From Deltaproteobacteria bacterium (GTDB taxonomy: Bacteria; Desulfobacterota; Binatia; UBA9968; JAJDTQ01), in contig JAPPNE010000052.1 in the NCBI GenBank assembly GCA_028818775.1, forward strand, positions 66,697 to 130,696: a stretch of DNA of 64,000 bases, written 5' to 3'. How positions within the stretch are numbered: the stretch's first letter is position 1; each line of letters opens with the position of its first letter. The position numbers were made by a program, and so were the translations under genes. A model generated the notes under the pieces. That model was not told the origin of the DNA. It worked only from the letters and a program-made list of their open reading frames with translations, and searched no databases. Positions 33,210 to 59,628 of the stretch are shown here, one piece after another.

Positions 33210-33238
33210 GCCACGACGATCATTGACGGTACGCCGCC

Positions 33239-33472: not shown

Positions 33473-33642
33473 GTTCAGGCGGCGGCCCGACCCGCCTCGA
33501 CATCTCACTGTTGGCGTTCCGTCGGCTTGAAGCGCCGCCCGAACGTGCGCGCCTGCGCGGTCTGTCATGGCCTACATTCTTTACAAACTGGACATTGTGT
33601 CGTATCCTTGTCCTTGGCTACGAAACAGGGTGTGAGGGTGAC

Positions 33643-34203: not shown

Positions 34204-34287
34204 GCGTGCCCACCTATCCTCGGCGCAGGATTCGACCGTTCTCTTGAAAGCCGCTGTCCAACTACCACCACGCACCAAACCCTTCCC

Positions 34288-38009: not shown

Positions 38010-38087
38010 CTGCGCGCCGGTCGCAACTGCAACTCGGAGTGATCGGCCGACAAACGCGGCGCCGACTTAGCTCCTTTCGACACCGCA

Positions 38088-38378
38088 TCACCCATCTAGC
38101 GCCAGATTGCTTTGACGGTCGCCCCCGAAATGACCTTGGCGGGCGCCGCCTCGTGGCTTCTTTGGAATGAGTTCCACTTTCGACAGGATCCGTCGATAGT
38201 CTCCACCCATCTCGCTGACCCCGACAATAAGGACTGTGATGAGAGCGAGATGAGTAGGAATTTCGCCTGAGCGCGCATAGTTGGAGATTGAGTTCGGGTT
38301 CATACCCAAGAGTCCAGCGAATGCACGGACGCTCAACCCAGCCTTCCCAAGTTCTACTAGGAACTCCCTATAAGACAT
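38088..38378 (-). CDS. XRE-family HTH protein, controller (C-protein)-like regulator of the R-M module
   Basis: From ATG 38378: MSYREFLVELGKAGLSVRAFAGLLGMNPNSISNYARSGEIP is an XRE-type HTH. It sits immediately upstream of, and co-oriented with, the methyltransferase. The C-terminal stretch is hydrophobic (HLALITVLIVGV). Confidence 0.55.
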   Translation of the reverse strand: MSYREFLVELGKAGLSVRAFAGLLGMNPNSISNYARSGEIPTHLALITVLIVGVSEMGGDYRRILSKVELIPKKPRGGARQGHFGGDRQSNLALDG

Positions 38379-38400
38379 CTCGGTGCTCGTACACACAAAT

Positions 38401-38433
38401 TAATGTGGAAGACCACATACTTTAATGTAACCA
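38401..38433 (-). promoter_or_regulatory. Palindromic putative C-box/operator upstream of the HTH gene
   Basis: TAATGTGG-AAGA-CCACAT (6-bp arms) is followed by a direct repeat TTTAATGT, ~25 nt upstream of the HTH start. Confidence 0.35.
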
Positions 38434-38587
38434 AGGTTATGTTACAGCAGCCCGCTTCTCTTCGCAAGAGCTTTCAACATCAGCGAATTCTCCGGGATTC
38501 CGGCTAAAACTGTGTGCGACATCGTCGCTGCGTCGTCCAGGCGAATCCCATTCCAAGTAGGGTGGTAGGGCGTATGGCTCGAACATC

Positions 38588-44012: not shown

Positions 44013-44020
44013 GGACGGAC

Positions 44021-45376
44021 ATGGAGCGTTTGCCGATGGATCGGGAGCTGGCGCTGGGGCTGCTGGCGCGGGCGAAGGACAAGGGCGCCTCCCAGGGCGA
44101 CGTGACGCTGATCGAGCGAGAGGGCGTGCAGGTGAAGGTGCGGCTCGGCGAGGTGGAGACCGTGAGCCAGGCGCACGAGATGCGCCTCGGGCTGCGCCTC
44201 TTCTTCGGTCAGAGCGCCGCCGCCACCTCCACCTCCGACCTGTCGCGCGCCTCGCTGGACCGCCTGGTTGACGAGACCTGCGCCATGGCCCGGGCCACGG
44301 CACGGGACGAATTCGGCGGCCTGCCGGAAGCCGGCGAGATGGCCGCCGAGGTGCCGGACCTGGACCTGCTGGACCAGGAGTCCCAGGGGCTCCCCATCGA
44401 GGACGGCATCGATGCCGCTCGCACGGCGGAGGAGCACGCGCTGCAATACGACCCGCGGGTGACCAACTCCGAGGGCGCCGAGTTTGCAAGTTCGTTCAAC
44501 CGCGTCATCCACGCCAATTCACAGGGCTTTGCCGGCGAGTACGCCACGTCCGGCTTTCATCTCTCCCTGGCCCCGGTGGCGACGTCCAACGGCTCCATGG
44601 AGCGGGACCACTGGTACACGGCCGCGCGCCGCCGCGACGCGCTGGATTCTCCGGAGGAGGTAGGCCGGGAGGCCGGCCGCCGCGTGGTCCGGCGGCTGGG
44701 CGCCCGCAAGGTGCGCAGCCGCGAGGTGCCGGTGGTCTTCGACGCGTCCATCGCCGGCACCCTGGTGCGGCACGTGGCCCAGGCAATTTCCGGCTACGTC
44801 CTCTATCAGCGCGCTTCCTTCCTGTGCGACCGGCTCGGGGAGCGCGTGGCGTCCGACCTCGTCCACATCGTCGACGACGGCACGATTCCGCGGGCCCTGG
44901 GGTCGCGCCCGTTCGACGCCGAGGGCGTCGGCGTCCAGCGCAAGGACGTGGTCGAGGCCGGCGTCCTGCGAAGCTACCTCCTGGACGCCTACAGCGCGCG
45001 CAAGCTCGGCGGCAAATCCACCGGCAACGCCGCGCGGGGCGTGGGGCAACCCTCGGCGGTTTCCCCCATGAACCTCCACCTCATCCCCGGCGAACACGGC
45101 CCCGAGGACATCATCGCCTCGGTGGAGGACGGCTTCTACGTCACCGAGCTCATGGGCTTCGGTTTCAACGCCGTCACCGGCAACTACTCCAGGGGCGCCG
45201 CCGGCATCTGGATCGAGAACGGCGAGCTCGCCTACCCCGTCTCAGAACTCACCATCGCCGGCAACCTCAACGACATGCTGAGCCGGATCGAGATGGTCGG
45301 CAACGACCTCCGCCCGCAGAGTCCGGTGGCCGCGCCCACGGTGAAGGTCGGGCGCATGACCGTGGCGGGGGAGTAG
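44021..45376 (+). CDS. pmbA: Metalloprotease PmbA/TldE
   Basis: From ATG 44021, 9 nt after the tldD stop. PmbA-family pattern, 451 aa, with no HExxH (the TldD partner). Confidence 0.8.
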   Translation: MERLPMDRELALGLLARAKDKGASQGDVTLIEREGVQVKVRLGEVETVSQAHEMRLGLRLFFGQSAAATSTSDLSRASLDRLVDETCAMARATARDEFGGLPEAGEMAAEVPDLDLLDQESQGLPIEDGIDAARTAEEHALQYDPRVTNSEGAEFASSFNRVIHANSQGFAGEYATSGFHLSLAPVATSNGSMERDHWYTAARRRDALDSPEEVGREAGRRVVRRLGARKVRSREVPVVFDASIAGTLVRHVAQAISGYVLYQRASFLCDRLGERVASDLVHIVDDGTIPRALGSRPFDAEGVGVQRKDVVEAGVLRSYLLDAYSARKLGGKSTGNAARGVGQPSAVSPMNLHLIPGEHGPEDIIASVEDGFYVTELMGFGFNAVTGNYSRGAAGIWIENGELAYPVSELTIAGNLNDMLSRIEMVGNDLRPQSPVAAPTVKVGRMTVAGE

Positions 45377-45523
45377 GTTCCAGCCAATCCAGCAATCCGC
45401 AATCTGCGGTCCACTTCAAGGGGTTTCGGGTGCTGCCGTGGTTTCTGCGGTGACGGCGCTGCTTGCGATTCCACGTTCCCAAGGATTCGGGTGCCTGTCA
45501 CCGGCGGCAACGGCTGGGGCGGG

Positions 45524-45811
45524 TCAGGTGATGTATCCCCATTTGCGGAAGGTGTCCTGGAGCGCTGGATCGCTCCGAAAAGCCTGGTAGTAGATGTATT
45601 CCGGCGCCAGGTCCGTCCCGTTGGGCCAGACGATAGTCTGAAGTTCTTCGTCCACACGAAACTGCCGGAATACCTCCGGATCCTTCAGCAACTCGAACAC
45701 CGGCCCGGTCAGCGCTTCCGCAAGATCCGCCACGCCTTCGCGGCCGTCATCGAAGCACACCTGCACGCGAAAGCCGTCGAGCGGCGTCGCCTTTGTCACG
45801 TGAAGAAACAT
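45524..45811 (-). CDS. DUF2442-domain protein
   Basis: MFLHVTKATPLDGFRVQVCFDDGREGVADL…VDEELQTIVWPNGTDLAPEYIY matches the DUF2442 pattern. Length is 95 aa. Confidence 0.6.
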   Translation of the reverse strand: MFLHVTKATPLDGFRVQVCFDDGREGVADLAEALTGPVFELLKDPEVFRQFRVDEELQTIVWPNGTDLAPEYIYYQAFRSDPALQDTFRKWGYIT

Positions 45812-45933
45812 GAGTCATTCCAGTGGGTCGATGGGATTCGGAGTTTCTTTTCTACGACACCTTTCCCAGTTATCCGATGGTCGTCCCAATACATGGCGAT
45901 GACAATTCCAAGGAATCTGCTGATAACCGGCAT
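45796..45933 (-). pseudogene. DUF4160-like short ORF (N-terminus conserved, C-terminal half divergent or truncated)
   Basis: Hand translation gives MPVISRFLGIVIAMYWDDH…, which matches the DUF4160 N-terminus (MPtISrFyGIvIrMY..DH). The expected PPHFH core is absent. This 45-aa ORF is not in the supplied track. It overlaps the DUF2442 start by 16 nt. Confidence 0.4.
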
Positions 45934-45954
45934 GTCGTCTCCCACCCCCTGCCG

Positions 45955-48900
45955 TCATGCCTGCTCGTTACGTCGAGCAGCCGTAGATAGCCTTCGGAAC
46001 GCTGGGCAATCAGCCAAGCCGGGCGCTAATGTCTTGACCCGGTCAAGAGCGTTGCTCAAGTCGTATGGCACGATCGCGTCCTGCTCTTCTCCAATGGTCA
46101 AATCCAGCAACGTAAGGAGTGCGGCGGCCTTTCGTTCATCGTTGACCGCCAACTGTAGCTTCGAGACGGCTTCACTTCCAGTTCCAACCTCGCCATAGAG
46201 CCCATACTCTAGTGTTGACCAGCAATCAAAGGGGACAAGGAAACGCTTCATCTCATCAACGGCTTCGGCAAAAGCCTCGCCCGAGGCGGCGGGGATATGG
46301 GACAACTCTCGGCTTGTGTCGCGTGTCGTCAAGTCGCTTTCTTGTGGCCACACGCTCCGAAAGAACGGCTTGACGGCTACATGAAACAGCTTTTCAACGG
46401 ATCGTATTTCTCCTTCTTGCGGTGGCCCTTCTTCCTGGAAGTACCGGATAGCGCAGGCTGCAAACAGACGCGTTTCGTCGTCTGCTGATCGGAGCATTTG
46501 TGACACGCGGGGTTCGGCCACCAAGGGCCTACGTTCGTCTCGGAACGCCGTCAACACTTCGATGACAAGGCAAGAAACAAGCGATTCCCGGGCTTCTCGA
46601 CCGAGGCGATGGTCAGTTGCCCTTTCAATCACCTTGTCACCGATGATTTCAAGTAGAGGCTTGCCGCTTCGACGTGCGGCCTTGCGCCAAAGTGCAATGG
46701 ATTGGAAGTCATCCGCCAACAACGGGTCCACCAGATATTGTTTCGTCCAGTCAGGGTCTGCGTTCTGGAAGAATGGCAAACGTTCCGCTAGTCGGCAGTG
46801 TGCCACTAGGCCGCTATGGTCGGAGGCGCTGATGATTCGATCTCGCATCTGCCGCGCAGGGCTGCCGTCGGAGAAGGGGCGGGCATCTTTGCCGACGGCT
46901 TGGCAGGCGGCCAGGAAGACTTCAATGAATTGTCCCGCTGGTGTGTTGAGAGTGTCGATATCCAGGGACTCTTGCTGGTCACCCGAAGAGTTGGTCAGGA
47001 TATGGTCCCGGTCGTTAGCGACGGCATTGGTCCTTTCGACTGCAATAGGCCAAGCTTGCAGCCAGACGGGCAAGCCGTGTTCTGATCGGATGACATATCG
47101 ACTCCAACTGAAGAGCCAGTGGCTGATACCCCAGATGGCTTCCGTAAGGTTCGTCTCCGACAGGTTCCTCAGCAGATACAGGATACGGTTTGCCTCATCT
47201 TGTGGCTGGGGTGGTGGTTCAAGACTCGGCGTCGGGGGAGATGGCGAATGAAGCGAAAGGAAACAATCCCAAAGGCGCGGAAACTCCTCCCCGGCCCTAG
47301 TGAATGATTCCAAGTCCGAGAGAAGGAGCACGGCACTACCGGCCCGTTGGAGCCAAGCTTTGGCGGAGTTGTCGATCCAATGAACTCCATCGTGTGACAG
47401 TTCCTCGTTCAGTGCCCGAAGGCGGGCCTCTCCTTCAAGCAGGTCATATGGAGTGTCGGCCGAGAGCCGCGGAACGGGATGCGCCTGTGCATCGAAAAAC
47501 CCGCCATCCACGCGCATGTCTTCGAGTTGGGGAAGTTCCTTGATTCGTTTGAGCAACCATCGGCGGGTTTTTGGCGCTATGATGCCGCCGGCGACTTCCA
47601 CTCGTTTGACTTCACGTGCGGCACAGTACCGTCTGCGAGTTTTGAGTTTGTGCGGCGGACCCTTGCACAAACGCTGGACAATCGTTTCCTGAACGTCCCG
47701 CCGAAGTTCCTTAACGCGTCTTGCCCTCAGTTCGGTGATCTCGGGGAATTCATCCAGACCCCAAAGCTCGTAGTCAGATAGTGTCACCAGGAAGTCACCG
47801 ACATCGTCAGCGCTTACCAACTGTGGATCCCGGGCGATTGCGGCCCATAGGCGCCGGTGGACGCCAGACCGCGACAACTGCCAGCCTGGGAAGAAGGGCG
47901 TGGCGGCCTGCTGATCGAGTTCGGAAATGCGGATGACAATTTCGTGAAGCAACTTGACCGACGGCGCGATTCCATCATTAAAGAGATCGGGCTCACCGCC
48001 CTCATGGCCGAATGCTTCTTCGACGTCTCTACCCTTCCCGTGGGGACGAACGAAATACACACGGTGAGGACTTTCCCAAGGCACCTCACGGCCTTCATCA
48101 GTCTTGTAGATCCGATTGATGACGTTGAGCCCGTATTGGACTGAAGATGCCAGCCCGTCTGCCAGTTCCTTCAGGAATTGTATTTCTGAAACCGTGCCTA
48201 TGTGGAGGTCGCCGTAGTCGTTCAGATTACCCAGGTTGACGCTCGTCAGGTTCGCCGACAGAAGGTCTTCAAAGATCTTTGGGTGTCGAGGCCTTTCCTC
48301 AATCGCTTTGACCTCCAGACGAGGCGCGAACAGATCCACAATCGCTGAAATCAGGGCGCCGGAACGCTCGCCTTTGCCGAGTCGATCACGGATCGTTACA
48401 AATGCCATCGCCGGATGGTCCCTGATCGGGCGATTAGACCAGCTTTCCTCGATCAAGCGCCATGCAGTCGCATAGGGTTCCTTCAACTCAGGACTGCCGT
48501 AATCGTTCAGTAGCTCGTCTATTGCGATCCGTTTGGTACTCCAGTTGGATTCTTTGAGCGCCCAATCGATCGTGGCTGGCTCAGCAAGCCGGTTCTTCAG
48601 AAACGTGGTCATGACTTGGGCGTGATGGCGGTCGGTCTCGCTCAACCCCGCCCATGAATGAATGGCGGTGGCTGGTCCGAACTTTTTTCCGGGCGTGGTC
48701 TCAATGATGGAATCCAGCCATCCGGGCTCGGCCTTCGCACCCGACGCCACACCTGCCAAGCGAATGCGTTCATTCGCATGCCCTCGCCTGAACAGGTGGT
48801 CGAACAGGTCACGATCAGCCTTGGGGGTGGCGGCTCTGCTCTCCCGTACGATCCGTCTTACCTCAACATCGACGGTTTTCGTCTTTCCGTTGATTGCGGA

Positions 48901-49896
48901 GAGTTTGGCCCACCGTTCAAGCGCATCGCGCAGCACGGAATGGTCTCCATTTCGAGCATCGTAGTGGATCGGGGTGATGCCCCGTGCCTTCCAGTCTTGC
49001 AATTCCACGGGGTCCCCAGAGCCAACGAAGGTAAACCGTTCTTTCAAATCGCTGAATCGGGCTCCGTCGGCGGCGACGGCGTTCAGCAGGTAGCGCATCG
49101 GCGGATCGTTGGCGCTATAGCCCGCCAGGACGAGATGGAAGAGGCGTGCGGCGTCGTAGATGAGATCAGGGACAATCCTCCGACGCAGATAGTATTCCCC
49201 GAGGTCCTGGTCCGACAACACGAGATCCGAGAAGCGAGCCGGATTCCGGTCCAAGGCTCCGTGAATATGGAGCACTCCAGCGAACTCCTTGCGCGTCGTG
49301 GGTCTCGGGATCGATCCCAACGCATAGGTTTGCACTGGGGAACCAAGGCGCTTGGCAGCGGCTTCGAGCAAGAGGTCAAAGTTGGTGGTCATGATCGTCG
49401 TGACGCCGCCGCGGTCGGCTAGGCGCATGAGCGCCCGATGTATTGGCGCCGGTTTGTCGCTTGCTTGGCGCAGCAGTTCCGCTACGGTGCTTCTGACCTT
49501 GCTCGTGATCTTGTTCTTTTCATGAGTTTGATCGTCCAGCCGGCGTTCAAGCATTCCCAAGACCACGTCGTACTCGCCGGCAACGAACCGCTTGACCTCT
49601 GCCTTTTGGTTATTCCTGAGCTTCGACCAACCCGGTTCTGTAGTGTCAAGTGCGCGGTTAGGAGTCTTCGGAAGGATTTCGTAGACGCTTGCATCAAGCC
49701 TTTCATAGACGTCGCGTACCAGTTCTCGGAAGTCAGGCAGCCCCGCAGGACGTGAGATACCCGCACCGCAGATGAAGAGTACTTCGCCCCGCGCATGTGC
49801 CAGAAGCAAGCGTTCCGGAATCTCCGGGAGGCCTGGGCTGAGCGAAACGGCGCGGTAAGCGTCGTCACCGTGATCGGAATGAGGTAAATTGCTCAT
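45955..49896 (-). CDS. Large (1313 aa) SIR2_2-domain protein, defence-associated sirtuin (DSR)-like
   Basis: The N-terminal ~330 aa carry SIR2_2/DHS-like motifs (LFICGAGISRPAGLPDF; VTTIMTTNFDLLLE; VLHIHGAL). These are followed by ~1000 aa with no recognised catalytic motif (helical/repeat-like). GC is ~57%. Confidence 0.65.
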   Translation of the reverse strand: MSNLPHSDHGDDAYRAVSLSPGLPEIPERLLLAHARGEVLFICGAGISRPAGLPDFRELVRDVYERLDASVYEILPKTPNRALDTTEPGWSKLRNNQKAEVKRFVAGEYDVVLGMLERRLDDQTHEKNKITSKVRSTVAELLRQASDKPAPIHRALMRLADRGGVTTIMTTNFDLLLEAAAKRLGSPVQTYALGSIPRPTTRKEFAGVLHIHGALDRNPARFSDLVLSDQDLGEYYLRRRIVPDLIYDAARLFHLVLAGYSANDPPMRYLLNAVAADGARFSDLKERFTFVGSGDPVELQDWKARGITPIHYDARNGDHSVLRDALERWAKLSAINGKTKTVDVEVRRIVRESRAATPKADRDLFDHLFRRGHANERIRLAGVASGAKAEPGWLDSIIETTPGKKFGPATAIHSWAGLSETDRHHAQVMTTFLKNRLAEPATIDWALKESNWSTKRIAIDELLNDYGSPELKEPYATAWRLIEESWSNRPIRDHPAMAFVTIRDRLGKGERSGALISAIVDLFAPRLEVKAIEERPRHPKIFEDLLSANLTSVNLGNLNDYGDLHIGTVSEIQFLKELADGLASSVQYGLNVINRIYKTDEGREVPWESPHRVYFVRPHGKGRDVEEAFGHEGGEPDLFNDGIAPSVKLLHEIVIRISELDQQAATPFFPGWQLSRSGVHRRLWAAIARDPQLVSADDVGDFLVTLSDYELWGLDEFPEITELRARRVKELRRDVQETIVQRLCKGPPHKLKTRRRYCAAREVKRVEVAGGIIAPKTRRWLLKRIKELPQLEDMRVDGGFFDAQAHPVPRLSADTPYDLLEGEARLRALNEELSHDGVHWIDNSAKAWLQRAGSAVLLLSDLESFTRAGEEFPRLWDCFLSLHSPSPPTPSLEPPPQPQDEANRILYLLRNLSETNLTEAIWGISHWLFSWSRYVIRSEHGLPVWLQAWPIAVERTNAVANDRDHILTNSSGDQQESLDIDTLNTPAGQFIEVFLAACQAVGKDARPFSDGSPARQMRDRIISASDHSGLVAHCRLAERLPFFQNADPDWTKQYLVDPLLADDFQSIALWRKAARRSGKPLLEIIGDKVIERATDHRLGREARESLVSCLVIEVLTAFRDERRPLVAEPRVSQMLRSADDETRLFAACAIRYFQEEGPPQEGEIRSVEKLFHVAVKPFFRSVWPQESDLTTRDTSRELSHIPAASGEAFAEAVDEMKRFLVPFDCWSTLEYGLYGEVGTGSEAVSKLQLAVNDERKAAALLTLLDLTIGEEQDAIVPYDLSNALDRVKTLAPGLADCPAFRRLSTAARRNEQA

Positions 49897-49926
49897 GACG
49901 GTTCAAGTGTAGCAGAGTAACCGCCC

Positions 49927-49970
49927 GTCAGCATGGCGGCAAGATGAGGTCAGCATGGCGGCAAGATGAG
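49927..49970. repeat. Perfect 22-bp tandem duplication (GTCAGCATGGCGGCAAGATGAG x2) in the divergent SIR2/mod intergenic region
   Basis: Read directly: 49927-49948 equals 49949-49970. Each unit contains the mini-ORF ATG GCG GCA AGA TGA. Confidence 0.9.
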
Positions 49971-50040
49971 GGTGGTAGGCCAAAGATGTTTGACGGCGGC
50001 AACGGTCGCGGCTTAACTTGAGGAAAGGAGAAATTCAGAG

Positions 50041-52797
50041 GTGGCAGGAAAGAAGAATACGGTGGGCCGAAAAGGAAAGACGCGCAGCGCCAGGAGTTAC
50101 GGGCATCCTGAGGCGGGTGCGCTACTCCGGCCGGACATCGGGATGCAGGCGCAGTTCCGCAAGAAGAAGCCGCTGGCCACCTACCGTTACGACACCTCGC
50201 TGTCTCCAGCCCTCGAATGGGACGGACAGAATTCCGGTCGGGAAGAGGGAGAAGCGAAAATCGCTTCGTTGGAGGACCGCATAGCGAGGCTGTCCGCGAT
50301 CGTCGATCCCGTCAACGGGGATCTCTCCGAAAGGGATGTCGCAAGGGCCAAGGAGGAGCTTGCCGCCGCCCGGGAAGACGCCACCGCGCTGAAGACGCTT
50401 TCCAAGCCCTTTCTCAACTGGGCTGGAAAGGCCGAACGGCTCTCCTTTGACGTGCCGACTCTGCCGTTGTTTGTGCACGAGCGTCTGTCCACGTCCGCGA
50501 TCCTGGAGACGTTGAAAGGGCATACCCGAGACCGTCAAGTGAACATGTTCGATCTGTTCGGGGAGAGCGATCTCCCGATCCACGATCGGCTGCTGAGGGC
50601 GTACGAGCATCAGAACGGGTGGGTGAACCGGCTGATCCTTGGCGACTCGCTGGTGGTGATGAACTCCTTACTCGGGTACGAGGGCGTGGGCGGTCAAGTG
50701 CAGACCATCTACATGGATCCGCCCTACGCCGTGAAGTTCGGGTCCAACTTTCAGCCCTTCGTGCGCAAGCGCGACGTCACCCATGGCGACGACGAGCACA
50801 TGGTGCGGGAGCCGGAGATGGTCCAGGCGTACCGGGACACCTGGGAACTCGGCCTGCATTCCTTCCTGACCTACCTGAGGGACCGGTTGCTGCTGGCGCG
50901 GGAGCTGCTCCATCCGTCCGGGAGCATCTTCGTCCAGATGTCCGATACCAATCTGCACCATGTCCGCGAGGTAATGGACGAGGTGTTCGGCGCGGAGTGC
51001 TTTGTCTCGCAGATCAGTTTCCAGACGACATCGGGATTTCAGACGAAGACGCTTGCGACCCTTGGTGATTTTATTCTGTGGTACGCGCGGGATCCGGAGA
51101 GGCTCAAGGTAAGGAAGTTGTTCGAGGAACAGCCCGTCGTGCTTGGTGAAGGCAACGCAAGATGGGTGCTTCTCCCGGACGGAAGCTACCGAGGAGTGAC
51201 CGCGGCCGAGAGGCGTGGAGAAGCGGCCGTACCAACAGAAAGCCGTCTTTATAGCCCGAGCGGAATGGAATCTCCTGGTTCACCGAGTCAACCGCAGCCG
51301 TTCGACTTCCAGGGTCGGAAGTTCGAACCGAATCACAATCGTCATTGGGCGGCCAATTATCCGATCGGTCTCGAACGCCTCGCTAGGGCAGGAAGAATAC
51401 ATGTTGCCGCCAATAGCTTGAGGTATCGCCGCTTCCCTTCAGATTTCCCATATAAGACCTTGGGCAATATTTGGACAGACACCATGACAGGAAGTTTCAC
51501 GGAGACGAAGTCCTACGTGGTGCAGACCAACCCCAAGGTAATCGAACGGTGCCTGCTGATGACATCCGACCCTGGCGATCTGGTATTCGATCCTACCTGC
51601 GGCTCGGGGACCACCGCGTATTGCGCGGAGAAGTGGGGGCGGCGTTGGATCACCACCGACACGTCGCGGGTGCCGCTTGCGCTCGCGCGCCAGCGCCTGC
51701 TCACCAGCACCTTCGAATTCTACCAGCTCAAGGAGCTGGGAAGGGGTCCGGCAGGAGGCTTCGAATATCGGCGCAGACAGAACGCCAAAGGAGAAGAAGT
51801 CGGCGGCATCGTGCCACACATCACCCTTGAATCCATCGCCAACGACGAGCCGGCAAAGGAGGAAGTGCTTGTTGACCGGCCGGAGACGGACGCTGGCGTC
51901 ACCCGCGTGAGCGGTCCGTTCTGTGTCGAGGCGACCATTCCGACGCCGGTTGATTGGGAAGGAGATGGTAAGGAAGACTCGGGCGATGCCTCCGCCGCCA
52001 AGGCTTATGCGAGTCACGTGAATCGCATGATCGCGGTGTTGCAGCATTCGCCGGTGCTCCGTCTCGGCGGCGGTCAGACCGTAACCCTTTCCAAGGTGCG
52101 TCTGCCCGCGCGGACCATGAGCTTGTCGGCCGAGGCCTCGGTCGAAGGCTATGGAGAGCAGACGGCTGCCATCGTCTTCGGTCCGGAGAACGGCGCAGTC
52201 TCGGAGTTGCTGGTGTTCGAGGCGGCGCGTGAGGCATATGCCAAGGGGTACGGCCACCTCTATGTCATCGGCTTCGCCATACAGCCTGATGCGCGGCGCC
52301 TGATTGAGGGTTGCGAGCAGACGGTCGGCGTACCCGCGACTTATGTGCAGGCGAGCATGGATTTGTTGATGGGAAATCTGCTCAAGAACCTGCGGTCGAG
52401 TCAAATCTTCTCAGTATGCGGTCTCCCGGACGTGCGGATCAGAAAATCTGCCAAGCAAGGCTATCAGGTCGAGCTTCGTGGTCTCGACGTGTTCGATCCG
52501 GTCGCGATGGACTCGGATCATCGGCAGGGGAGTGATGTCCCGGCGTGGTTCCTCGACACGGATTACAATGGACTCTGCTTCCACGTGTGCCAGGCGTTCT
52601 TCCCACGGACTTCGGCATGGGAAGGTCTCAAGCGTTCACTCCAAGGCGAGTTCGAGGACACCGTGTGGGCGCATCTGTCGGGGACTGTCAGCACTCCGTT
52701 CCAGGCTGGCGAGCACGGGCAGGTGGCAGTGAAAGTGGTCGATGATCGCGGAAACGAACTGATGGTCGTCAAGCCACTCTCGGAGGCGGATGGGTGA
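50041..52797 (+). CDS. mod: Type III R-M-type (beta-class) N6-adenine DNA methyltransferase Mod, unusually long (918 aa)
   Basis: Motif IV MDPPYA (aa ~224) precedes motif I FDPTCGSGTTAYCAEKWGRRWITTD (aa ~505), which is the beta-class order. An N-terminal coiled-coil-like segment and a ~350-aa C-terminal extension are present. GTG start with an AGGAG RBS. Confidence 0.75.
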   Translation: MAGKKNTVGRKGKTRSARSYGHPEAGALLRPDIGMQAQFRKKKPLATYRYDTSLSPALEWDGQNSGREEGEAKIASLEDRIARLSAIVDPVNGDLSERDVARAKEELAAAREDATALKTLSKPFLNWAGKAERLSFDVPTLPLFVHERLSTSAILETLKGHTRDRQVNMFDLFGESDLPIHDRLLRAYEHQNGWVNRLILGDSLVVMNSLLGYEGVGGQVQTIYMDPPYAVKFGSNFQPFVRKRDVTHGDDEHMVREPEMVQAYRDTWELGLHSFLTYLRDRLLLARELLHPSGSIFVQMSDTNLHHVREVMDEVFGAECFVSQISFQTTSGFQTKTLATLGDFILWYARDPERLKVRKLFEEQPVVLGEGNARWVLLPDGSYRGVTAAERRGEAAVPTESRLYSPSGMESPGSPSQPQPFDFQGRKFEPNHNRHWAANYPIGLERLARAGRIHVAANSLRYRRFPSDFPYKTLGNIWTDTMTGSFTETKSYVVQTNPKVIERCLLMTSDPGDLVFDPTCGSGTTAYCAEKWGRRWITTDTSRVPLALARQRLLTSTFEFYQLKELGRGPAGGFEYRRRQNAKGEEVGGIVPHITLESIANDEPAKEEVLVDRPETDAGVTRVSGPFCVEATIPTPVDWEGDGKEDSGDASAAKAYASHVNRMIAVLQHSPVLRLGGGQTVTLSKVRLPARTMSLSAEASVEGYGEQTAAIVFGPENGAVSELLVFEAAREAYAKGYGHLYVIGFAIQPDARRLIEGCEQTVGVPATYVQASMDLLMGNLLKNLRSSQIFSVCGLPDVRIRKSAKQGYQVELRGLDVFDPVAMDSDHRQGSDVPAWFLDTDYNGLCFHVCQAFFPRTSAWEGLKRSLQGEFEDTVWAHLSGTVSTPFQAGEHGQVAVKVVDDRGNELMVVKPLSEADG

Positions 52798-54443
52798 TCC
52801 GCACGGTTCGCATCCGGGGCTTCAAGCGTTTCGATGATGTGGAGTTCCGTCTGCCGGGGCACATGGTCCTGGCCGGTCCCAACAATACCGGGAAAACGAC
52901 GGTGCTTCAGGCTATCGCTTCATGGTCCCTTGCCTTGCGGCGGTGGCGTGAGCTCAACGACTTCAATCCTCGACAGGGTTATACGCGTGCGCCTATCGCG
53001 AGGCAGGCGTTTGCGGCGGTTCCTCTTCGGAGTTTCGATCTGATGTGGAAAGACCGCGAATATTGGGATCAGATCGAGATCGAGATCCGGCATGACGCCG
53101 GCTGGTCCGTGACGATGGAGCTTATCGCGGACAGCACTGAGCAGATCTATGTCCGCCCCAAGGTGGATGTGCCGGCTGATACGCTGCGCAAACTGGACCT
53201 TGGCGTGGTCTACGTACCTCCGATGACCGGATTGGAGACAAACGAACGGCTATTTCAGCCTGCTGCCATCGAGCAGATCCTCGGCCTCAGCCGTCCCGGC
53301 GAAGTGTTGCGCAATCTGCTGGTCGTCGCGAGCCTCGATGATGCCGCTTGGGCTGCAATTCAAGACTCTATAGGGAAGCTCTTCGGCTATGAGCTGCTAG
53401 TCCCTGACGCCAGTGGGCCGTATATCCGGGCCGAGTACAGAATGACGAAAGGGGGGCAGCCCCTTGATATCGCCAGCGCGGGTAGCGGGTTTCAACAGGT
53501 GCTGATGCTGCTCACGTTTCTCAATACGAGGGAGGGTTCGGTTCTCCTTCTCGACGAGCCCGATGCGCATCTTCACCTGATCCTGCAGGACGCCATCTAC
53601 TACGAGCTTCGCACCGTTGCCGCCCGTCATAGATCCCAGCTCGTCATTGCGACACACTCCGAGGTGATAATCAATTCGGTCGAGCCTCGCGAGCTATGTG
53701 TCACACTCAACGAGCCCCGGATGGTTGCCGACAATGAGGAGCGCAGCCGACTGATTAAATCACTTGGTGTACTCAGTAACGCAGATGTGATGCAGGCGTT
53801 TGAGGTCCGCGGTGTGCTGTACGTCGAAGACTACACGGACATCAACATCCTGCGGACCTGGGCCACGAACCTGAAACACAAGGCCGAATCCCTGCTCACT
53901 ACCGAGTTGATGTGGAAGCCGGTGGTTTTCCAGGCGCAGGAAGGGCGGCCAGGGATCAAGGCGCGAGACCATTTCGACGCGCTACGACTCGTGCGGGACG
54001 AATTACCTGGTCTGGAACTGCTCGACGGTGACGCTCACCCCGCGGTACCGGAGACAGAAATCACCCGGACGGGCTTGCAGCGGCTTCGCTGGCGACGTTA
54101 CGAGATTGAGAGTTATCTTGTTCACCCGCATGCGCTGGCCCGCTTCGTCGAGGCAGAAGTCGGAGTCGGCTCCGCTGAGCTGCATGTCCAGGACATGCTC
54201 ACCTACTGGCGCAACGAATTTCCTCCGGCGGTAATGGATGACCCGCTGGGAGAGCACGAGTTCCTGAACGCAACGAAAGCGCGCTTGCGACTGCTTCCCC
54301 CTTTGCTGGACGCCGCGGGACTCCACGGGCTACCACACACTCGCTATCATGAGATCGCGGCGCTGATGCTCCCGGAGGAGATTCATCCAGAAGTGGTCGA
54401 GAAACTCGACGCCATTTGCCGTGCTTTCGGGGTCGAGCCATGA
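52794..54443 (+). CDS. OLD/AAA_21-family ABC-type ATPase with a C-terminal TOPRIM/DUF4435-like region (Gabija GajA / PARIS AriAB / class-2 OLD-like)
   Basis: GTG 52794 overlaps the mod TGA (GTGA), and the stop overlaps the res ATG (ATGA). Walker A GPNNTGKTT, signature-like ASAGSGFQQVL, Walker B LLLDEPDAHLH and ATHSE are present. The C-terminal region has GVLYVEDYTDINIL (E…DxD-like). Confidence 0.6.
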   Translation: MIRTVRIRGFKRFDDVEFRLPGHMVLAGPNNTGKTTVLQAIASWSLALRRWRELNDFNPRQGYTRAPIARQAFAAVPLRSFDLMWKDREYWDQIEIEIRHDAGWSVTMELIADSTEQIYVRPKVDVPADTLRKLDLGVVYVPPMTGLETNERLFQPAAIEQILGLSRPGEVLRNLLVVASLDDAAWAAIQDSIGKLFGYELLVPDASGPYIRAEYRMTKGGQPLDIASAGSGFQQVLMLLTFLNTREGSVLLLDEPDAHLHLILQDAIYYELRTVAARHRSQLVIATHSEVIINSVEPRELCVTLNEPRMVADNEERSRLIKSLGVLSNADVMQAFEVRGVLYVEDYTDINILRTWATNLKHKAESLLTTELMWKPVVFQAQEGRPGIKARDHFDALRLVRDELPGLELLDGDAHPAVPETEITRTGLQRLRWRRYEIESYLVHPHALARFVEAEVGVGSAELHVQDMLTYWRNEFPPAVMDDPLGEHEFLNATKARLRLLPPLLDAAGLHGLPHTRYHEIAALMLPEEIHPEVVEKLDAICRAFGVEP

Positions 54444-57400
54444 ACCCGCACGAAGTTTCCGAGCCAATCCTGAACGCACCCTTCGATGAACCCAGGGAGC
54501 ACTGGTGGATTACGGAGCACGATCCGCCGGAGCGGCGTCCGGGCCGGCGTCCAGCCATGTATTTTTACCGCCGCCCGGGCAGCGAGCCGTCGTTGGAGCA
54601 GCAGGGAACCGGCACTGCCATTGAGTTGAAGCTGGTGAACCGAGTCCGTGCCAAGCTTGCCGAATGGCGGCCCTTGGCGCTGCGCGGCGAAGGCGGCGTG
54701 ACCCGAACCACCGTAGAGTTGTTGCGTTACTGGCGGCAGGAAGGACGGAGACACCGGTTGTTCTTTGCCCAGATCGAGGCCGCCGAGACGATCATTTTCC
54801 TTACCGAGGCCCGCCCTGATTTCCTGCAGGGGATCCGTGTCCCGCTCGACGAACCGGGCGAGGAGGCCCGGGCGGACGGGTTCCGAGCCTTTCGTCGCTA
54901 CGCTTGCAAGATGGCTACGGGCACGGGAAAGACGACCGTCATGGGAATGCTCGCTGCTTGGAGCATTCTCAACAAGGTCGCAGCCCGTGGGGACGCTCGT
55001 TTTTCGGACGTGGTGTTGATCGTGTGTCCCAACGTCACGATCCGAAACCGGCTTGAGGAACTCAAGCCGCAAGCCGGTGAGGCCAGCCTTTACCGCACGC
55101 GTGACCTCGTCCCGTCACACCTCATGCCGCAGCTCGCACGTGGACACGTGCTTGTCACCAACTGGCACGTGTTTGAGCCGAAGACCGCGCAGGTCGCCGG
55201 CCAGTCGGCAAAGGTCCTCCGCGCCGGACGCGAGATCCGCACGAGGGAGACCATACGTATTGGCCCCAAGACAACCACGGCGCGCGGCATCCGTTACCTG
55301 ACTTTGGCCGATCTCGAACGGCAGGCGGCCGCTGGCCTGATTGCCGTTCGTGATGAACAGCGGGACCGGCAAGGCAATCTCAAGTCGGTTTCCGTGGAAT
55401 CGTTCCGGTACGTCGAGAGTGATGCCAAGCTCATCGACCGCGTTCTCGGGCGAGAAATCGGAGGCAAGGGCAACATTCTGGTCATGAACGACGAAGCACA
55501 TCACGCGTATCGGCTCAGGCGTGTTGAGCCAGAAGAGGGCGAGGAGGATCTGTTCGGCGAAACCGATGACAGCGAGGAGTTTTATAGGGAAGCGACGGTA
55601 TGGGTCGACGGGCTTGACCGTGTCCACAAGCATCGCGGTATCAACCTGTGTGTAGACCTCTCTGCCACCCCCTACTACCTGGGCCGGGTCGGACAGGACG
55701 CCAACCGGCCGTTTCCGTGGGTTGTCAGTGATTTCGGACTTGTCGACGCCATCGAGTCGGGACTCGTCAAGATTCCGCAGCTTGCGGTTCGGGACACAAC
55801 CGGCAGCCACATCCCTGGCTACTTCAACATCTGGCGCTGGATCCTGCCGAGATTGACCCCTGCGGAGCGCGGCGGCCGGCGGGGAAGCGTGAAGCCCGAA
55901 GCGGTCCTCAAGTATGCGCATGTTCCAGTCGCCATGTTAGGTGGACTGTGGGAGTTGCTACGCGAGGAGTGGAGCAAACGGGATGGTGAAAGCCGGCCGC
56001 CCGTATTCATCATCGTGTGCAAGAACACCGCGCTCGCCAAGGTCATTTACCAGTGGCTCGCCGAGGACAAGGCGCCGGTGGGGATTCCGCCCGCGCGTCT
56101 TGAAGGTCTGCGGAACACGGACGGGAACCTTTGCACCATACGTGTGGACTCCAAGGTTGTGCGCGAGTCCGACAGCGGACAGACGAGGTCCGATGCGGAC
56201 CAATGGATGCGCGTGACGCTGGATACAGTCGGTAAGACTGACTGGCCGCGGGACGGACAGAGACGGCCCATCTACCCTGAAGGCTTCGAGACGCTGGCCA
56301 ACAAACTCGAACGACCACTTCATCCACCTGGCCGTGACGTAAGGTGCATTGTGAGCGTCGGAATGCTCACCGAGGGTTGGGACTGCAACACCGTGACCCA
56401 TATCGTCGGACTTCGCCCGTTCATGTCGCAGTTGCTTTGTGAACAGGTGGTCGGGCGAGGGCTGCGGAGGTCCAGCTATGCCGTGGGGGAGGACGGGAAA
56501 CTCGGTGAGGAAGTCGCGAAGATCTTCGGTGTACCGTTCGAGATCGTGCCCCTGAAGGAGAATCCCCCGGACAACGGAGCGCCGCCACCTCCGAAGACTT
56601 GGCGAATACGGGCAGTGCCCGAGAAGGCAGCTCTGGAGATCCGGTTCCCCCGCGTCGAGGGTTACACGCAAGGGATCAGAAACCGCGTAAAGGTGGACTG
56701 GGAAAGCATCGCGCCTCTGCGTCTCGACCCCATGGACATCCCACCTGAAGTGGAGATGAAGGCAGGCCTTCCGAGCAACACCGGGCGGCCTTCGCTGGTG
56801 GGTCCTGGACAACTTGAACGCGTCGATCTCAACCCGTACCGCAACAATACACGGTTGCAGCAATTGGTGTTCGAGATGGCGCGGGATCTGACACGGGATT
56901 ATCGGGAGCAACCGGGTTGCGACGCGCCTCCTCACGTACTGTTTACACAACTCGCCACCATCGTGGATCGCTACATCAGGGAAAAGGTGGTCCCTGTCGA
57001 ACCGGCGCGAGACATCGATGCGTTCCTCTCCCCTTGGTACGGTTGGCTGGTGGAACGCCTTGTCGCCGCCGTCCGCCCGGACCATGGCAACGGAGACGAG
57101 GCAGAACTCCCGCGCTACGAGAGCGGCCGCGGTCCCGGATCTACAGCCGAGGTCGACTTCGAGACGCGGCGAGTGCCCTATCCCGTCGTCAAGAGTCACG
57201 TCAACGCGGTCGTGCCCGACACCGCGAAGTGGGAGCAGTCCGCCGCCTACCGTTTGGACACTCACGAACTCGTCCACTCGTTCGTCAAAAACGCTGGTCT
57301 CGGTTTCGCGATCCCCTACCTGCACAACGGCGAACAGCACGAATACCTGCCGGATTTTATCGTCCGGTTGACCAGAGACACCGCCCACTACCTGATTCTT

Positions 57401-57562
57401 GAAACCAAGGGCTATGACCCCATAGCCCAAGTCAAGTCACAAGCAGCCCACCGGTGGGTCAACGCTGTAAACGCAGACAGGCGATTCGGCACATGGAGCT
57501 ACGAGTTGGTGACGGACATGGGTAAGGTGGGCGAAGCCGTGAATCGGGCAGCCATGTCGTGA
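54440..57562 (+). CDS. res: Type III restriction enzyme Res subunit (SF2 helicase plus C-terminal PD-(D/E)xK nuclease)
   Basis: Walker A MATGTGKTT, DEAHH box and motif VI-like GMLTEGWDCNTVTHIVGLRP are present. The C-terminal nuclease motif is YLPDFIVRL…LILETKG. Length is 1048 aa. Confidence 0.75.
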   Translation: MNPHEVSEPILNAPFDEPREHWWITEHDPPERRPGRRPAMYFYRRPGSEPSLEQQGTGTAIELKLVNRVRAKLAEWRPLALRGEGGVTRTTVELLRYWRQEGRRHRLFFAQIEAAETIIFLTEARPDFLQGIRVPLDEPGEEARADGFRAFRRYACKMATGTGKTTVMGMLAAWSILNKVAARGDARFSDVVLIVCPNVTIRNRLEELKPQAGEASLYRTRDLVPSHLMPQLARGHVLVTNWHVFEPKTAQVAGQSAKVLRAGREIRTRETIRIGPKTTTARGIRYLTLADLERQAAAGLIAVRDEQRDRQGNLKSVSVESFRYVESDAKLIDRVLGREIGGKGNILVMNDEAHHAYRLRRVEPEEGEEDLFGETDDSEEFYREATVWVDGLDRVHKHRGINLCVDLSATPYYLGRVGQDANRPFPWVVSDFGLVDAIESGLVKIPQLAVRDTTGSHIPGYFNIWRWILPRLTPAERGGRRGSVKPEAVLKYAHVPVAMLGGLWELLREEWSKRDGESRPPVFIIVCKNTALAKVIYQWLAEDKAPVGIPPARLEGLRNTDGNLCTIRVDSKVVRESDSGQTRSDADQWMRVTLDTVGKTDWPRDGQRRPIYPEGFETLANKLERPLHPPGRDVRCIVSVGMLTEGWDCNTVTHIVGLRPFMSQLLCEQVVGRGLRRSSYAVGEDGKLGEEVAKIFGVPFEIVPLKENPPDNGAPPPPKTWRIRAVPEKAALEIRFPRVEGYTQGIRNRVKVDWESIAPLRLDPMDIPPEVEMKAGLPSNTGRPSLVGPGQLERVDLNPYRNNTRLQQLVFEMARDLTRDYREQPGCDAPPHVLFTQLATIVDRYIREKVVPVEPARDIDAFLSPWYGWLVERLVAAVRPDHGNGDEAELPRYESGRGPGSTAEVDFETRRVPYPVVKSHVNAVVPDTAKWEQSAAYRLDTHELVHSFVKNAGLGFAIPYLHNGEQHEYLPDFIVRLTRDTAHYLILETKGYDPIAQVKSQAAHRWVNAVNADRRFGTWSYELVTDMGKVGEAVNRAAMS

Positions 57563-57664
57563 GTGCGGTAGTCTCGGTGTGTTGGTCGGATTGCGGCTGA
57601 GTTGATGTGTATTTGAGTTGATAGGACGTGGCTCGTAACTGCCGCAAAAGACCTGAACCTCAAA

Positions 57665-58876
57665 ATGACCTGGGAACCTGTCTGGGCACTACCGAATATT
57701 GACTTGGACAAACCTGTCGAGAGTCCAACCTTTGCGCTCGTTCCTGCTTCGGATCCCCGTGTCCAATTTCTGGAAAAGGAACATCGGAATTTCCGAATCT
57801 TCATGAGTCGGTTCCAGGATCCGCATGGGCATCCCATTCGGCCTACTCTCATAATTCGTCGCACCGATGTTGCCGAAAATTTCAGGGGGGCGGATGTAGC
57901 TGCCAGTTTTCGTGATGTCCTTGTCGCCTGTACCGTCCCACTTGCGAGATCCCTGGACATCATCTACGACAACAGTCGTGACAGAGTCCGATATGGCAGT
58001 TTCTTTTGGGTCTACCCTTGGATGCTTGATCGAAGCTACGAACGGATCATTGCGCATACGCCAGCAATACTGGCCCTGCACGATGTGAATCATTTGAGAG
58101 GACAGTCGTCCCCGGAACTGGCGCCAACGACGTTGCGACGGCGAGACCTTGATGAGCCGCTGTTACAGGAACTTCTCCGCCGCTGGACAGCACGTTATGA
58201 AACCATTTCACCGAAATGGGCGGATGTCGCGCTTTTTCGATCTCTGAATATGGCGAACCAAGCCTGTCTTCTTCCGGCGGGCGCCGATGCTGTTATGCAC
58301 GACTACGGGAGAATAATCGCCTTGTGGACAGCCGCCTGTGAGATTCTTGCTCATCCCGGAGGCGACGGACAAGCTAACCTAAGGAAGGTGTTTGAACTGC
58401 TGCGGAGAATACCCTGGGTGGACCAAAAATGCGGGCATCGGCGATATCTGATCCGACACAAGAAACGGACAGATCGAGAGAATCTGGCTGGTTGGCTTTA
58501 TTGGCGCATCTACTGCTGCCGCAATGATTTTCTTCACGGCAACCCGGTTGCGATTGAGAATTTACTCACTCCCAACTCCCGCCGTGCACTCGACCATCAC
58601 GCGGCTACTCTATATCGGTTGGCGCTGTCCTCCTTTCTGCGCTTGGCATGGAGTGAACCCTTGCCGGCAAGTGACGACGCCGACATTGTTGCGGAATATG
58701 TCGCAAGAAAAATGCAGTTCCAAGAACCACAAGTGGGATGTGAGGAGGCCTTGAGATTGTGTCGAGTGTCGGTTGCTCAACAACGCCGAGCTCGAAGGAA
58801 AGCGATTGAGAGGAGGCGGAGGATGGCCTTCTCAATGAACCTAGGACAGAATCGGACGGGACACGCACGACCGTGA
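57665..58876 (+). CDS. Hypothetical 403-aa protein with a HEPN-like Rx4H motif (possible Abi-type effector); ~53% GC
   Basis: No family was recognised. CCRNDFLHGNPV fits the HEPN Rx4-6H signature. GC is markedly lower than any neighbour. It follows res after a 100-bp AT-richer spacer. Confidence 0.35.
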   Translation: MTWEPVWALPNIDLDKPVESPTFALVPASDPRVQFLEKEHRNFRIFMSRFQDPHGHPIRPTLIIRRTDVAENFRGADVAASFRDVLVACTVPLARSLDIIYDNSRDRVRYGSFFWVYPWMLDRSYERIIAHTPAILALHDVNHLRGQSSPELAPTTLRRRDLDEPLLQELLRRWTARYETISPKWADVALFRSLNMANQACLLPAGADAVMHDYGRIIALWTAACEILAHPGGDGQANLRKVFELLRRIPWVDQKCGHRRYLIRHKKRTDRENLAGWLYWRIYCCRNDFLHGNPVAIENLLTPNSRRALDHHAATLYRLALSSFLRLAWSEPLPASDDADIVAEYVARKMQFQEPQVGCEEALRLCRVSVAQQRRARRKAIERRRRMAFSMNLGQNRTGHARP

Positions 58877-58918
58877 TAGGTCGGAGCCTGTCCAGGTAAT
58901 CGCGTCGCGTAGCCCCGC

Positions 58919-58937
58919 GGGCGACCGCCGGTCGCCC
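58919..58937 (+). terminator. GC hairpin (GGGCGACC-GCC-GGTCGCCC) downstream of the 403-aa gene; possible terminator, no U-tract
   Basis: Read directly: an 8-bp perfect stem with a 3-nt loop. Confidence 0.25.
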
Positions 58938-59013
58938 CTACAGGCACATCTCCATGCCTCGCGGTATTTCCGATTGCACGGACAGTCGTTGGCTCGTCAC
59001 AACAGTGGAGTCT

Positions 59014-59628
59014 CTACGAGGACATGCGGAACAATAGAAACACGACAATCGCAAGCACCAAACCGATCACCGTGGCCGCGCTCAGGTGGCGTTCGATGAG
59101 TGTGCGGACCGGGGGACCGAAGTACCAGAGGAGCGTGGCCTCGACGTAGAAGCGGAAGCCGCGGGATAGCAACGAGGCCAGGACGAAAACGCCCAGGTCA
59201 AGGCGGGCGGCACCGCACGCGACGGCCACCAGCTTGTAGGGGAGCGGGGTCAGGGCGCCGGCGACGACGATCCATGCGCCCCATTCGCGCCGGTACGTCT
59301 CGAATGCCTCAAGCTTTCCCGCATACCCCCACAGAGCAAGCAGAGGCTCACCCACGGCCTCGAAAAGGAAATAGCCGATGGCGTATCCGGCGAGGCCGCC
59401 GGCCGTCGACGACAGGGTGGAGATGCCGGCGAAGGTCCAGGCCCTGGCGCGCCGGGCCAGCACCATGGGGATGAGAAGGAGATCCGGCGGAACCGGGAGA
59501 AAGAGACTCTGGAGAAAGCACACGCCGGCCAGCGCCCAGACGGCGCGCCGCGTTGCTGCGCTACGGATGGTCCAGTCGTAGAGTCGGTTGAGCGTGCGGG
59601 AGTCCGTCCCCGCGGTCGAGTGGGTCAT
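59014..59628 (-). CDS. DedA/YqaA-family (SNARE-associated) membrane protein
   Basis: Multi-TM protein with a DedA-like core (FLQSLFLPVPPDLLLIPMVLA…). Confidence 0.6.
   Translation of the reverse strand: MTHSTAGTDSRTLNRLYDWTIRSAATRRAVWALAGVCFLQSLFLPVPPDLLLIPMVLARRARAWTFAGISTLSSTAGGLAGYAIGYFLFEAVGEPLLALWGYAGKLEAFETYRREWGAWIVVAGALTPLPYKLVAVACGAARLDLGVFVLASLLSRGFRFYVEATLLWYFGPPVRTLIERHLSAATVIGLVLAIVVFLLFRMSS

Follow-up and report, generated by a model that had tools for sequence, protein, structure and literature searches.

An ABC ATPase-Toprim-like gene in a candidate defence-cargo slot between mod and res of a Type III-like restriction-modification operon

What does an ATPase gene do between the two genes of a Type III-like restriction-modification (R-M) operon? 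A canonical Type III enzyme, EcoP15I, is a Mod2Res1 complex. Type III systems (Mod2Res1/2) cleave DNA in an ATP-dependent manner that needs two inversely oriented unmethylated sites, and their methylation is hemimethylation of one strand. In a stretch of 64,000 nucleotides (nt) from a Deltaproteobacteria bacterium (GenBank assembly GCA_028818775.1, contig JAPPNE010000052.1, positions 66,697 to 130,696; hereafter the window), a third open reading frame (ORF) lies between mod and res and overlaps both. The initial annotation offered two readings of this gene, either a third component of a tripartite Type III enzyme or a second defence module nested inside the operon. We favour, at a probability of roughly 60%, the reading that the mod-res junction is a slot for accessory defence cargo, filled here by a separable, exchangeable and autonomous second-line nuclease module resembling OLD and PARIS, co-transcribed with the R-M genes and coupled to them in translation.

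Architecture of the three-gene operon

Reading of the sequence confirmed the three ORFs, their coordinates and their GTGA and ATGA overlaps as first annotated, and all motifs quoted for Mod, the ATPase and Res were found in the translations (lengths in amino acids, aa):

50041-52797, + strand: mod, 918 aa, GTG start
52794-54443, + strand: ATPase gene (middle ORF), 549 aa, GTG start
54440-57562, + strand: res, 1040 aa from ATG
52794-52797, + strand: GTGA overlap of mod stop and ATPase start, with GGAGG 8-9 nt upstream
54440-54443, + strand: ATGA overlap of ATPase stop and res start, read in the sequence

The mod-then-res order of a Type III locus is thus kept with a third ORF in between, and relatives exist in which mod overlaps res directly. 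In Mod, DPPY (aa 226-229, 50716-50727) precedes FDPTCGSGTT (FxGxG, aa 516-525, 51586-51615), and the protein is therefore a beta-class N6/N4 DNA methyltransferase; as in Type III Mod proteins, a variable segment separates the two motifs. The assignments of Mod and Res both held in profile searches. Mod matched Pfam N6_N4_Mtase (1.3e-25), PADLOC MTase_III (1.9e-136) and, among PDB entries, the Type III Mod subunits 6k0w (4.4e-12) and 4zcf (EcoP15I Mod, 1.1e-9). Res combines a helicase-type ATPase of superfamily 2 (SF2) with a C-terminal PD-(D/E)xK endonuclease, as expected of a Type III Res: MATGTGKT (motif I, aa 158-165, 54911-54934), NDEAHHAYR (DEAH, aa 350-358, 55487-55513), motif VI (56444-56470) and PDF...ETKG (PD-ExK, aa 971-991, 57350-57412). 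Motifs I, II (DEAH), III and VI and the C-terminal PDF...ExKG were at least 97% conserved among 80 Res relatives. Res belongs to NCBIfam NF046055, the 'BPTD_3080 family restriction endonuclease' (1023.6 bits, cut-off 800). It barely passed Pfam ResIII (24.7 bits, cut-off 22.5), was scarcely detectable with the PADLOC REase_III model and had no sequence relative in the PDB; a literature search on the BPTD_3080 family gave nothing relevant and no characterised member. These results indicate an operon that is Type III-like in architecture, with a Res from an uncharacterised family. It resembles EcoP15I in having mod upstream of res, a beta-class Mod with a central target-recognition domain (TRD), and a Res with SF2 helicase and C-terminal PD-ExK. 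It differs in the near-undetectability of Res with the ResIII and REase_III models and in the size of Mod, whose 918 aa include a long C-terminal extension of roughly 300 aa.

The middle ORF encodes a two-domain protein, an ATP-binding cassette (ABC) ATPase followed by a Toprim-like domain:

52794-53690, + strand: N-terminal ABC head (SMC/Rad50/PtuA/AriA-like), aa 1-299
52875-52901, + strand: Walker A GPNNTGKTT, aa 28-36
53475-53498, + strand: signature SAGSGFQQ, aa 228-235
53544-53576, + strand: Walker B/D-loop LLLDEPDAHLH, aa 251-261
53649-53663, + strand: H-loop ATHSE, aa 286-290
53691-54443, + strand: C-terminal Toprim-like domain of AriB/DUF4435 type, aa 300-549
53817-53840, + strand: LYVEDYTD (E345, D349)
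54018-54038, + strand: LLDGDAH (D411, D413)
54096-54119, + strand: RYEIESYL

The N-terminal part has the Walker A, signature, Walker B and H-loop of an OLD-type ABC ATPase. In alignments, Walker A, Walker B, the H-loop and the Toprim acidic residues are conserved among relatives, and the signature of the C-terminal domain reads LYVEGxTD (E345, D349), LLDGD (D411, D413) and W-x-RYEIENYL. The domains proposed for a check were recovered in part: the window protein matched Pfam AAA_21 (3.9e-19) and AAA_15 (1.8e-17) and did not match DUF4435 or OLD-like_TOPRIM. Among relatives, DUF4435 was detected in 4/44 (best 7.1e-6) and 5/21 (best 0.0021), and OLD-like_TOPRIM weakly in 5/21 (0.022). PADLOC models of AriAB and AriB each matched the C-terminal domain in 11/21 relatives (best 8.2e-7 and 1.8e-5, respectively) and left that of the window unmatched. 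For the whole window protein, the best PADLOC results were partial ATPase matches to NsnB (8.7e-23) and AriA, and a match of the full-length AriAB model (1.4e-16) spanned the ATPase motifs only. PADLOC 2.0.0 held no specific model for the protein, and the HEC-04 model was absent among the PADLOC matches of the C-domain relatives. MADS (MAD2/MAD3), suggested by weak NCBIfam and PADLOC matches, was rejected at 43 bits against a cut-off of 420 bits.

Structure comparison pointed to the OLD nucleases. The best PDB profile match of the middle protein was 6p74 (1.8e-15), and a profile of the C-terminal domain only matched no PDB sequence. An AlphaFold2 (AF2) model built from 44 diverse relatives (pLDDT 94.3, pTM 0.89) replaced an earlier run on a shallow alignment of sequences at least 74% identical (pLDDT 61.9). 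The model shows a beta-alpha-beta pattern, with E345 after the first predicted strand and the DxD after the third. Its top Foldseek match in the PDB was again 6p74, a Class 1 OLD nuclease from Thermus scotoductus (492 aligned columns, E 3.7e-14, 14% identity, TM 0.31), followed by PtuA and GajA. The label 'OLD-family' given at first is thus fair for fold and architecture, as the Toprim-type acidic residues are also conserved. Together, motifs and predicted fold suggest a diverged subfamily of OLD/PARIS-type ABC ATPase-Toprim fusions. The C-domain family is small, with 392 clusters at 50% identity (E <=1e-3) among 1.84 billion representatives; nearly all full-length relatives are proteins of 540-600 aa with identical architecture, and the subfamily at least 74% identical to the middle protein comprises more than 120 clusters at 90% identity.

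Occupants of the mod-res junction among relatives

A scan for Res through the genomes of 185,579 species gave 232 relatives, from which the best 80 were kept (Res 62-96% identical); 77 of their loci were informative about the junction. They come from Thermodesulfobacteriota, Binatia, Alpha- and Gammaproteobacteria, Spirochaetia, Acidobacteriota, Planctomycetota, Bacteroidota, Actinomycetota, Firmicutes and others. Results showed that 53 of the 77 loci carry a homologue of the ATPase in the slot, that mod abuts or overlaps res in 11, and that the remaining 13 hold other cargo. As the mod-ATPase-res order recurs in 53 loci from many phyla, which the proposed synteny survey was to look for, the arrangement is not due to chance. 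The initial annotation had named a recent, independent insertion, missing from close relatives, as what would speak against the unit. This is not what the loci show: the ATPase has long been associated with mod and res and occupies most of the slots. In a neighbour-joining tree of Res, loci with replaced cargo fell within clades that carry the ATPase. Isolates show the same variety, with mod directly overlapping res on the Mycobacterium avium plasmid pS2b and an unrelated 354-aa gene in the slot on the Planktothrix plasmid p3. Apparently truncated ATPase genes stand beside full-length res in three loci (L024, L026, L044). Most of the alternative occupants corresponded to embedded defence candidates already published, as follows (L numbers are loci):

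L052: AAA_21 plus DUF4276 genes, HEC-01A/B at 2.7e-176 / 2.7e-62 (PADLOC)
L065: AAA_21 plus DUF4276 genes, ORF sizes matching those of HEC-01A/B in L052
L067: AAA_14-DUF4143 gene, PDC-S01; ORFs of the same size in L066 and L074
L064: DUF5131 gene plus a 355-aa ORF, PDC-M30B/A
L042: HipA_2-like plus DUF3037 genes, PDC-M66A/B
L054, L058: PD-ExK-like gene, 345 aa, PDC-S11
L048: TIR-like gene, PADLOC 'Effector' (TIR) model, 7e-10
L032, L034: small IS200/RAYT-like gene, judged by eye from the sequence

The middle gene thus has the position of an embedded defence gene: it lies between core genes in the same orientation, and relatives hold alternative cargo there, HEC-01 and four PDC families.

Translational coupling of the three genes had been proposed from the overlaps, and this was correct for both junctions. 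Among 51 operons (50 loci and the window), a 4-nt NTGA overlap was present at the ATPase-res junction in 44, at the mod-ATPase junction in 36, and at both in 31. The start of res also reads ATGA (GTGA in one) in 21/26 loci with an empty slot or other cargo (e.g. L035 8447, L052 5203, L097 6995). These 21 of 26 relatives have A as the first base of the second res codon, which lets the TGA stop of any upstream gene in the right frame overlap the res start. Since ATGA stands at the start of res whatever lies upstream, the coupling belongs to res and the slot and says nothing specific about the ATPase; it is no evidence for the ATPase as a stoichiometric partner. A sigma-70 promoter scan found no internal promoter in the operon, a weak test in a high-GC host that carries little weight. 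An apparent in-frame Mod-ATPase fusion (L062) was rejected, as a TGA stands between them and the ATPase ORF begins 19 nt further on, without a change of frame.

The history of the middle gene differs from that of its neighbours. In the closest relative (L001; Res 96% identical to that of the window), most of mod and res aligns with the window at 93-99% DNA identity, the whole ATPase ORF (52861-54500) at only 61-79%. Synonymous divergence (dS) between the two operons reaches 1.68 in the ATPase gene, against 0.19 in res and 0.36 in mod; a value so far above those of mod and res points to an ATPase allele with a different history, not merely to faster evolution. These comparisons indicate an exchange of ATPase alleles between operons that are otherwise nearly the same, and unequal dS across the three genes was also seen in the pairs L009/L011 and L068/L070. 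A second divergent segment lies in mod, where the variable target-recognition segment (~51061-51660) is 52-69% identical to L001 against 86-99% for the rest of the gene; this looks like a swap of TRD, and hence specificity, independent of the ATPase swap. The ratio of nonsynonymous to synonymous divergence (dN/dS) of the ATPase is 0.07-0.15 in most pairs, like that of mod and res, and this purifying selection marks the gene as functional. The module is for the most part inherited with the operon and now and then exchanged.

Homologues of the protein were followed outside R-M operons as well. A scan of metagenome contigs with the ATPase yielded one weak locus, the back-translated patterns being too specific, and contigs of 12 single proteins were looked up instead (P numbers are proteins; identities are to the window ATPase):

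P0001: 96%, mod-X-res
P0125: 53-55%, gene standing alone, with a spacer of its own upstream (L099)
P0132: 51%, intact and preceded by a NACHT gene, the operon around it decayed; the same protein in two samples
P0133: 48%, mod-X-res plus an extra 351-aa gene
P0147: 47%, mod-X-res
P0149, P0196: more distant, at the end of Multi_ubiq-E2-JAB/E1-BubE operons
P0211: more distant, a Multi_ubiq fusion whose island also has DUF1156 and DUF499 genes
P0229: more distant, followed by a PLD-SNF2 helicase gene
P0217: more distant, alone

No trace of Mod or Res was found in the surroundings of P0125. In the decayed operon (L092 3343-8977 and L093), Mod is reduced to 432 aa without the methylase core, a NACHT NTPase is inserted, and Res is a 77-aa ORF joining N- and C-terminal remnants, while the ATPase gene is intact. 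These contexts indicate that the protein family is a portable effector or sensor module. Ubiquitination-like operons that end in an overlapping ATPase-Toprim homologue were seen at L094 660-5240, L095 4055-8722 and L089 8001-10421, one of them with a Multi_ubiq fusion; in a term search, the Bub preprint (10.1101/2024.11.21.623953) showed no occurrence of ATPase, Toprim, effector, nuclease or OLD.

Weighing the role of the middle gene

By analogy with characterised systems, the ATPase-Toprim protein would be a latent ATP-dependent sensor-nuclease forming a second line of defence. Its trigger would most plausibly be a phage that escapes restriction or blocks it, much as Ocr and Stp set off PARIS and Stp sets off PrrC. 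The protein might dock on Mod/Res in the manner of PrrC, or it might sense phage factors directly in the manner of PARIS. Once triggered, the protein would cleave nucleic acid, either DNA or tRNA, and the infection would be aborted. Coupling to res would mean that the ATPase is present wherever the R-M system is expressed. Several points weigh against an autonomous cargo module. Nuclease activity, trigger and target of the protein are all what we infer, and the C-terminal domain of the window protein by itself falls below every Pfam and PADLOC threshold, with only its relatives matching, and weakly. Pairwise identities of ATPase and Res are strongly correlated (r = 0.92; Mod and Res, r = 0.95), which speaks for co-inheritance. 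Every sampled homologue above ~55% identity sits between mod and res, and the ATPase could depend functionally on the R-M proteins. The 80 loci were sampled through Res as the closest of 232, which makes the occupancy fractions no census, and many of them are metagenome-assembled genomes in which apparent truncations may be assembly errors.

Part of this evidence would suit a guardian in the style of PrrC, held inactive by Mod and Res, firing when an anti-restriction factor disables the enzyme, and dispensable for restriction. We regard such a role as doubtful. The conserved place of the gene between mod and res, its overlaps with both, the strong co-inheritance and the confinement of the closer homologues to mod-X-res all agree with it, as do the precedents of PrrC in EcoprrI and of PARIS triggered by Ocr and Stp, and the matches of C-domain relatives to AriB. 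Against it stand the homologues of 51-55% identity that are intact with no functional Mod or Res adjoining. Alleles of the ATPase are also swapped between near-identical Mod and Res, and Mod proteins with different TRDs share the module, which argues against tight co-adaptation of an interface. A related version, in which the protein is a dedicated guardian that docks on Mod/Res, senses their inhibition or evasion by phage and then degrades nucleic acid, and in which the junction is a conserved, coupled 'socket' for guardian and effector cassettes swapped by homologous recombination, seems to us unlikely.

The first reading of the initial annotation, in which the ATPase is a stoichiometric subunit needed for DNA cleavage or translocation, is in our view quite improbable. 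It could draw on the coupling on both sides, on the majority state of the arrangement, on purifying selection as strong as on Mod and Res, and on the faint matches of Res to canonical ResIII models, with which a non-canonical mechanism could be reconciled. The polymorphism of the slot speaks against it: full-length Mod and Res of unchanged length and domains occur with the slot empty or filled by foreign cargo, res remains intact beside apparently truncated ATPase genes, and the ATGA coupling is retained for any cargo. Exchange of the ATPase allele, homologues in unrelated defence contexts, and those of 51-55% identity that stand alone or outlive a decayed operon tell against it too. Slot polymorphism and allele exchange instead agree with the second reading, a nested defence module. 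A passenger with no part in defence, whether a selfish or addiction-type ATPase similar to the AAA_21 'AbiEii toxin' or a mobile insertion at a permissive site, appears most improbable. Pfam does name AAA_21 a putative toxin domain, the slot takes an IS200/RAYT-like gene in two loci, and the low-GC island around the operon was gained by horizontal transfer. However, no transposase, integrase or terminal repeats accompany the ATPase gene in the ORF list and a repeat search, purifying selection is maintained across many phyla, other occupants of the slot match models of embedded phage-defence candidates (HEC-01 and untested PDCs), and the architecture is that of known anti-phage nucleases.

The accessory module that we favour has relatives among several known systems. 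PARIS is triggered by Ocr or Stp, upon which the released Toprim effector AriB cleaves tRNA-Lys (PMC11464382; PMC12707154), and its single-gene form AriAB joins an AAA_15/AAA_21 ABC ATPase to a DUF4435 Toprim (PMC9122126; PMC11464382). By the rule of AAA_15/AAA_21 plus DUF4435 above threshold, the window protein has the ATPase part and lacks a detectable DUF4435, and its C-terminal domain matches no AriB or DUF4435 model by itself. In contrast to PARIS, which is found in phage and satellite hotspots, the window gene sits inside an R-M operon, to which it is translationally coupled. Class 1 OLD nucleases (P2 Old, 6P74) share the order of ABC ATPase then Toprim in ~550 aa. In the parts of the OLD review consulted, the gene's surroundings decide its class (on its own, beside a UvrD-like helicase, or with a retron; PMC10568477), and no class embedded in R-M operons appears there; the trigger described for OLD is RecBCD inhibition.

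Both R-M guardians (PrrC, PARIS) and embedded defences have been described before (PMC12707154; bioRxiv 10.1101/2024.01.29.577857). PrrC of the EcoprrI Type IC locus, like RloC, is a precedent for an ABC-type ATPase-effector gene between R-M genes, and PrrC is the model case of an R-M guardian. Its effector is an anticodon nuclease and not a Toprim, its host system is Type I and not Type III-like, and beyond the ABC ATPase there is no sequence relationship. The 'guilt by embedding' survey of Payne et al. (2024) found candidates inside Hma, BREX, DISARM and Type I R-M systems, with Type III systems outside its scope (bioRxiv 10.1101/2024.01.29.577857). One of them, HEC-04, is an ABC ATPase-Toprim fusion validated as dependent on Walker A and Toprim (same preprint). 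The mod-res slot of the window's relatives holds others or their like, namely HEC-01, PDC-S01, PDC-S11, PDC-M30 and PDC-M66. Defence genes embedded in R-M and related systems are therefore already known, as are ABC ATPase-Toprim nucleases, including fused ones (HEC-04, PARIS). A literature search for an ATPase between mod and res gave nothing relevant. As far as the literature and model libraries searched go, what is new is a Type III-like host with a defined, coupled cargo slot, together with a dominant, widespread and uncatalogued ATPase-Toprim subfamily and its link to Bub operons.

Island surroundings and significance

GC content drops to 57-61% over ~45000-59500 (flanks, 65-70%). The operon is part of this low-GC island, which has tldD/pmbA on one side and DedA/hemerythrin genes on the other. 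Flanking direct repeats marking an integration site were not found, only short matches at chance level. The following features adjoin the operon or lie further off in the window:

45955-49896, - strand: Dsr1-like SIR2 gene, 1313 aa, outside the operon, divergent, in the same island
49897-50040, + strand: intergenic leader from the Dsr1-like gene to mod (divergent)
57665-58876: 403-aa ORF just 3' of res, in the low-GC island
43418-45376: tldD/pmbA, abutting the island
34998-38009, - strand: 1003-aa ORF in a second low-GC patch (57-60%, 33000-38500)

The SIR2 neighbour matched Pfam SIR2_2 (1.4e-17) and PADLOC Dsr1 (2.8e-58) and stayed well under the NCBIfam Dsr1 cut-off (254.9 bits against 1400). 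DNA identity of at least 90% with L001 begins at 49712, within the first codons of this gene. L001 keeps only a 225-aa ORF here (4793-5470), the first 75 residues of which are common with the window protein; the shared mobile segment therefore starts inside the Dsr1-like gene. In the leader, a ribosome-binding-like site, GGAAAGGAG, lies ~10 nt 5' of the mod GTG, and positions 49927-49970 are a perfect 22-nt tandem duplication of GTCAGCATGGCGGCAAGATGAG. The alignment with L001 over the leader has 23 gap columns in 150, and these gaps would fit one repeat copy fewer in L001. The duplication could be a regulatory site or an element of slippage or phase variation.

Searches of Pfam, PADLOC and NCBIfam gave nothing for the 403-aa ORF, which also lacks a homologue in the 80 related loci and may be an orphan gene of the defence island. 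The 1003-aa protein resembles a Type IIG restriction enzyme-methyltransferase or PglX, and the patch around it may be another defence island. The solitary ATPase homologue of L099 adjoins a PmbA/TldD gene, with EamA (L099 4434-5780); the tldD/pmbA neighbourhood that it has in common with the window may be an integration hotspot or a coincidence.

If the cargo-slot reading is true, guilt by embedding and the idea of R-M guardians would reach beyond Type I, BREX and Hma systems into a widespread, uncharacterised Type III-like family, and the precise, coupled slot could be mined for new defence genes. An uncatalogued and highly conserved OLD/PARIS-like subfamily would be added, with a C-terminal domain that current Pfam and PADLOC models miss. 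The natural polymorphism of the slot, which is empty, filled by the ATPase or filled by other cargo beside near-identical Mod and Res, offers a genetic test of joint against independent action. Should the protein prove to be a guardian, the locus would be a modular two-layer immune operon of a kind not yet described for Type III systems.

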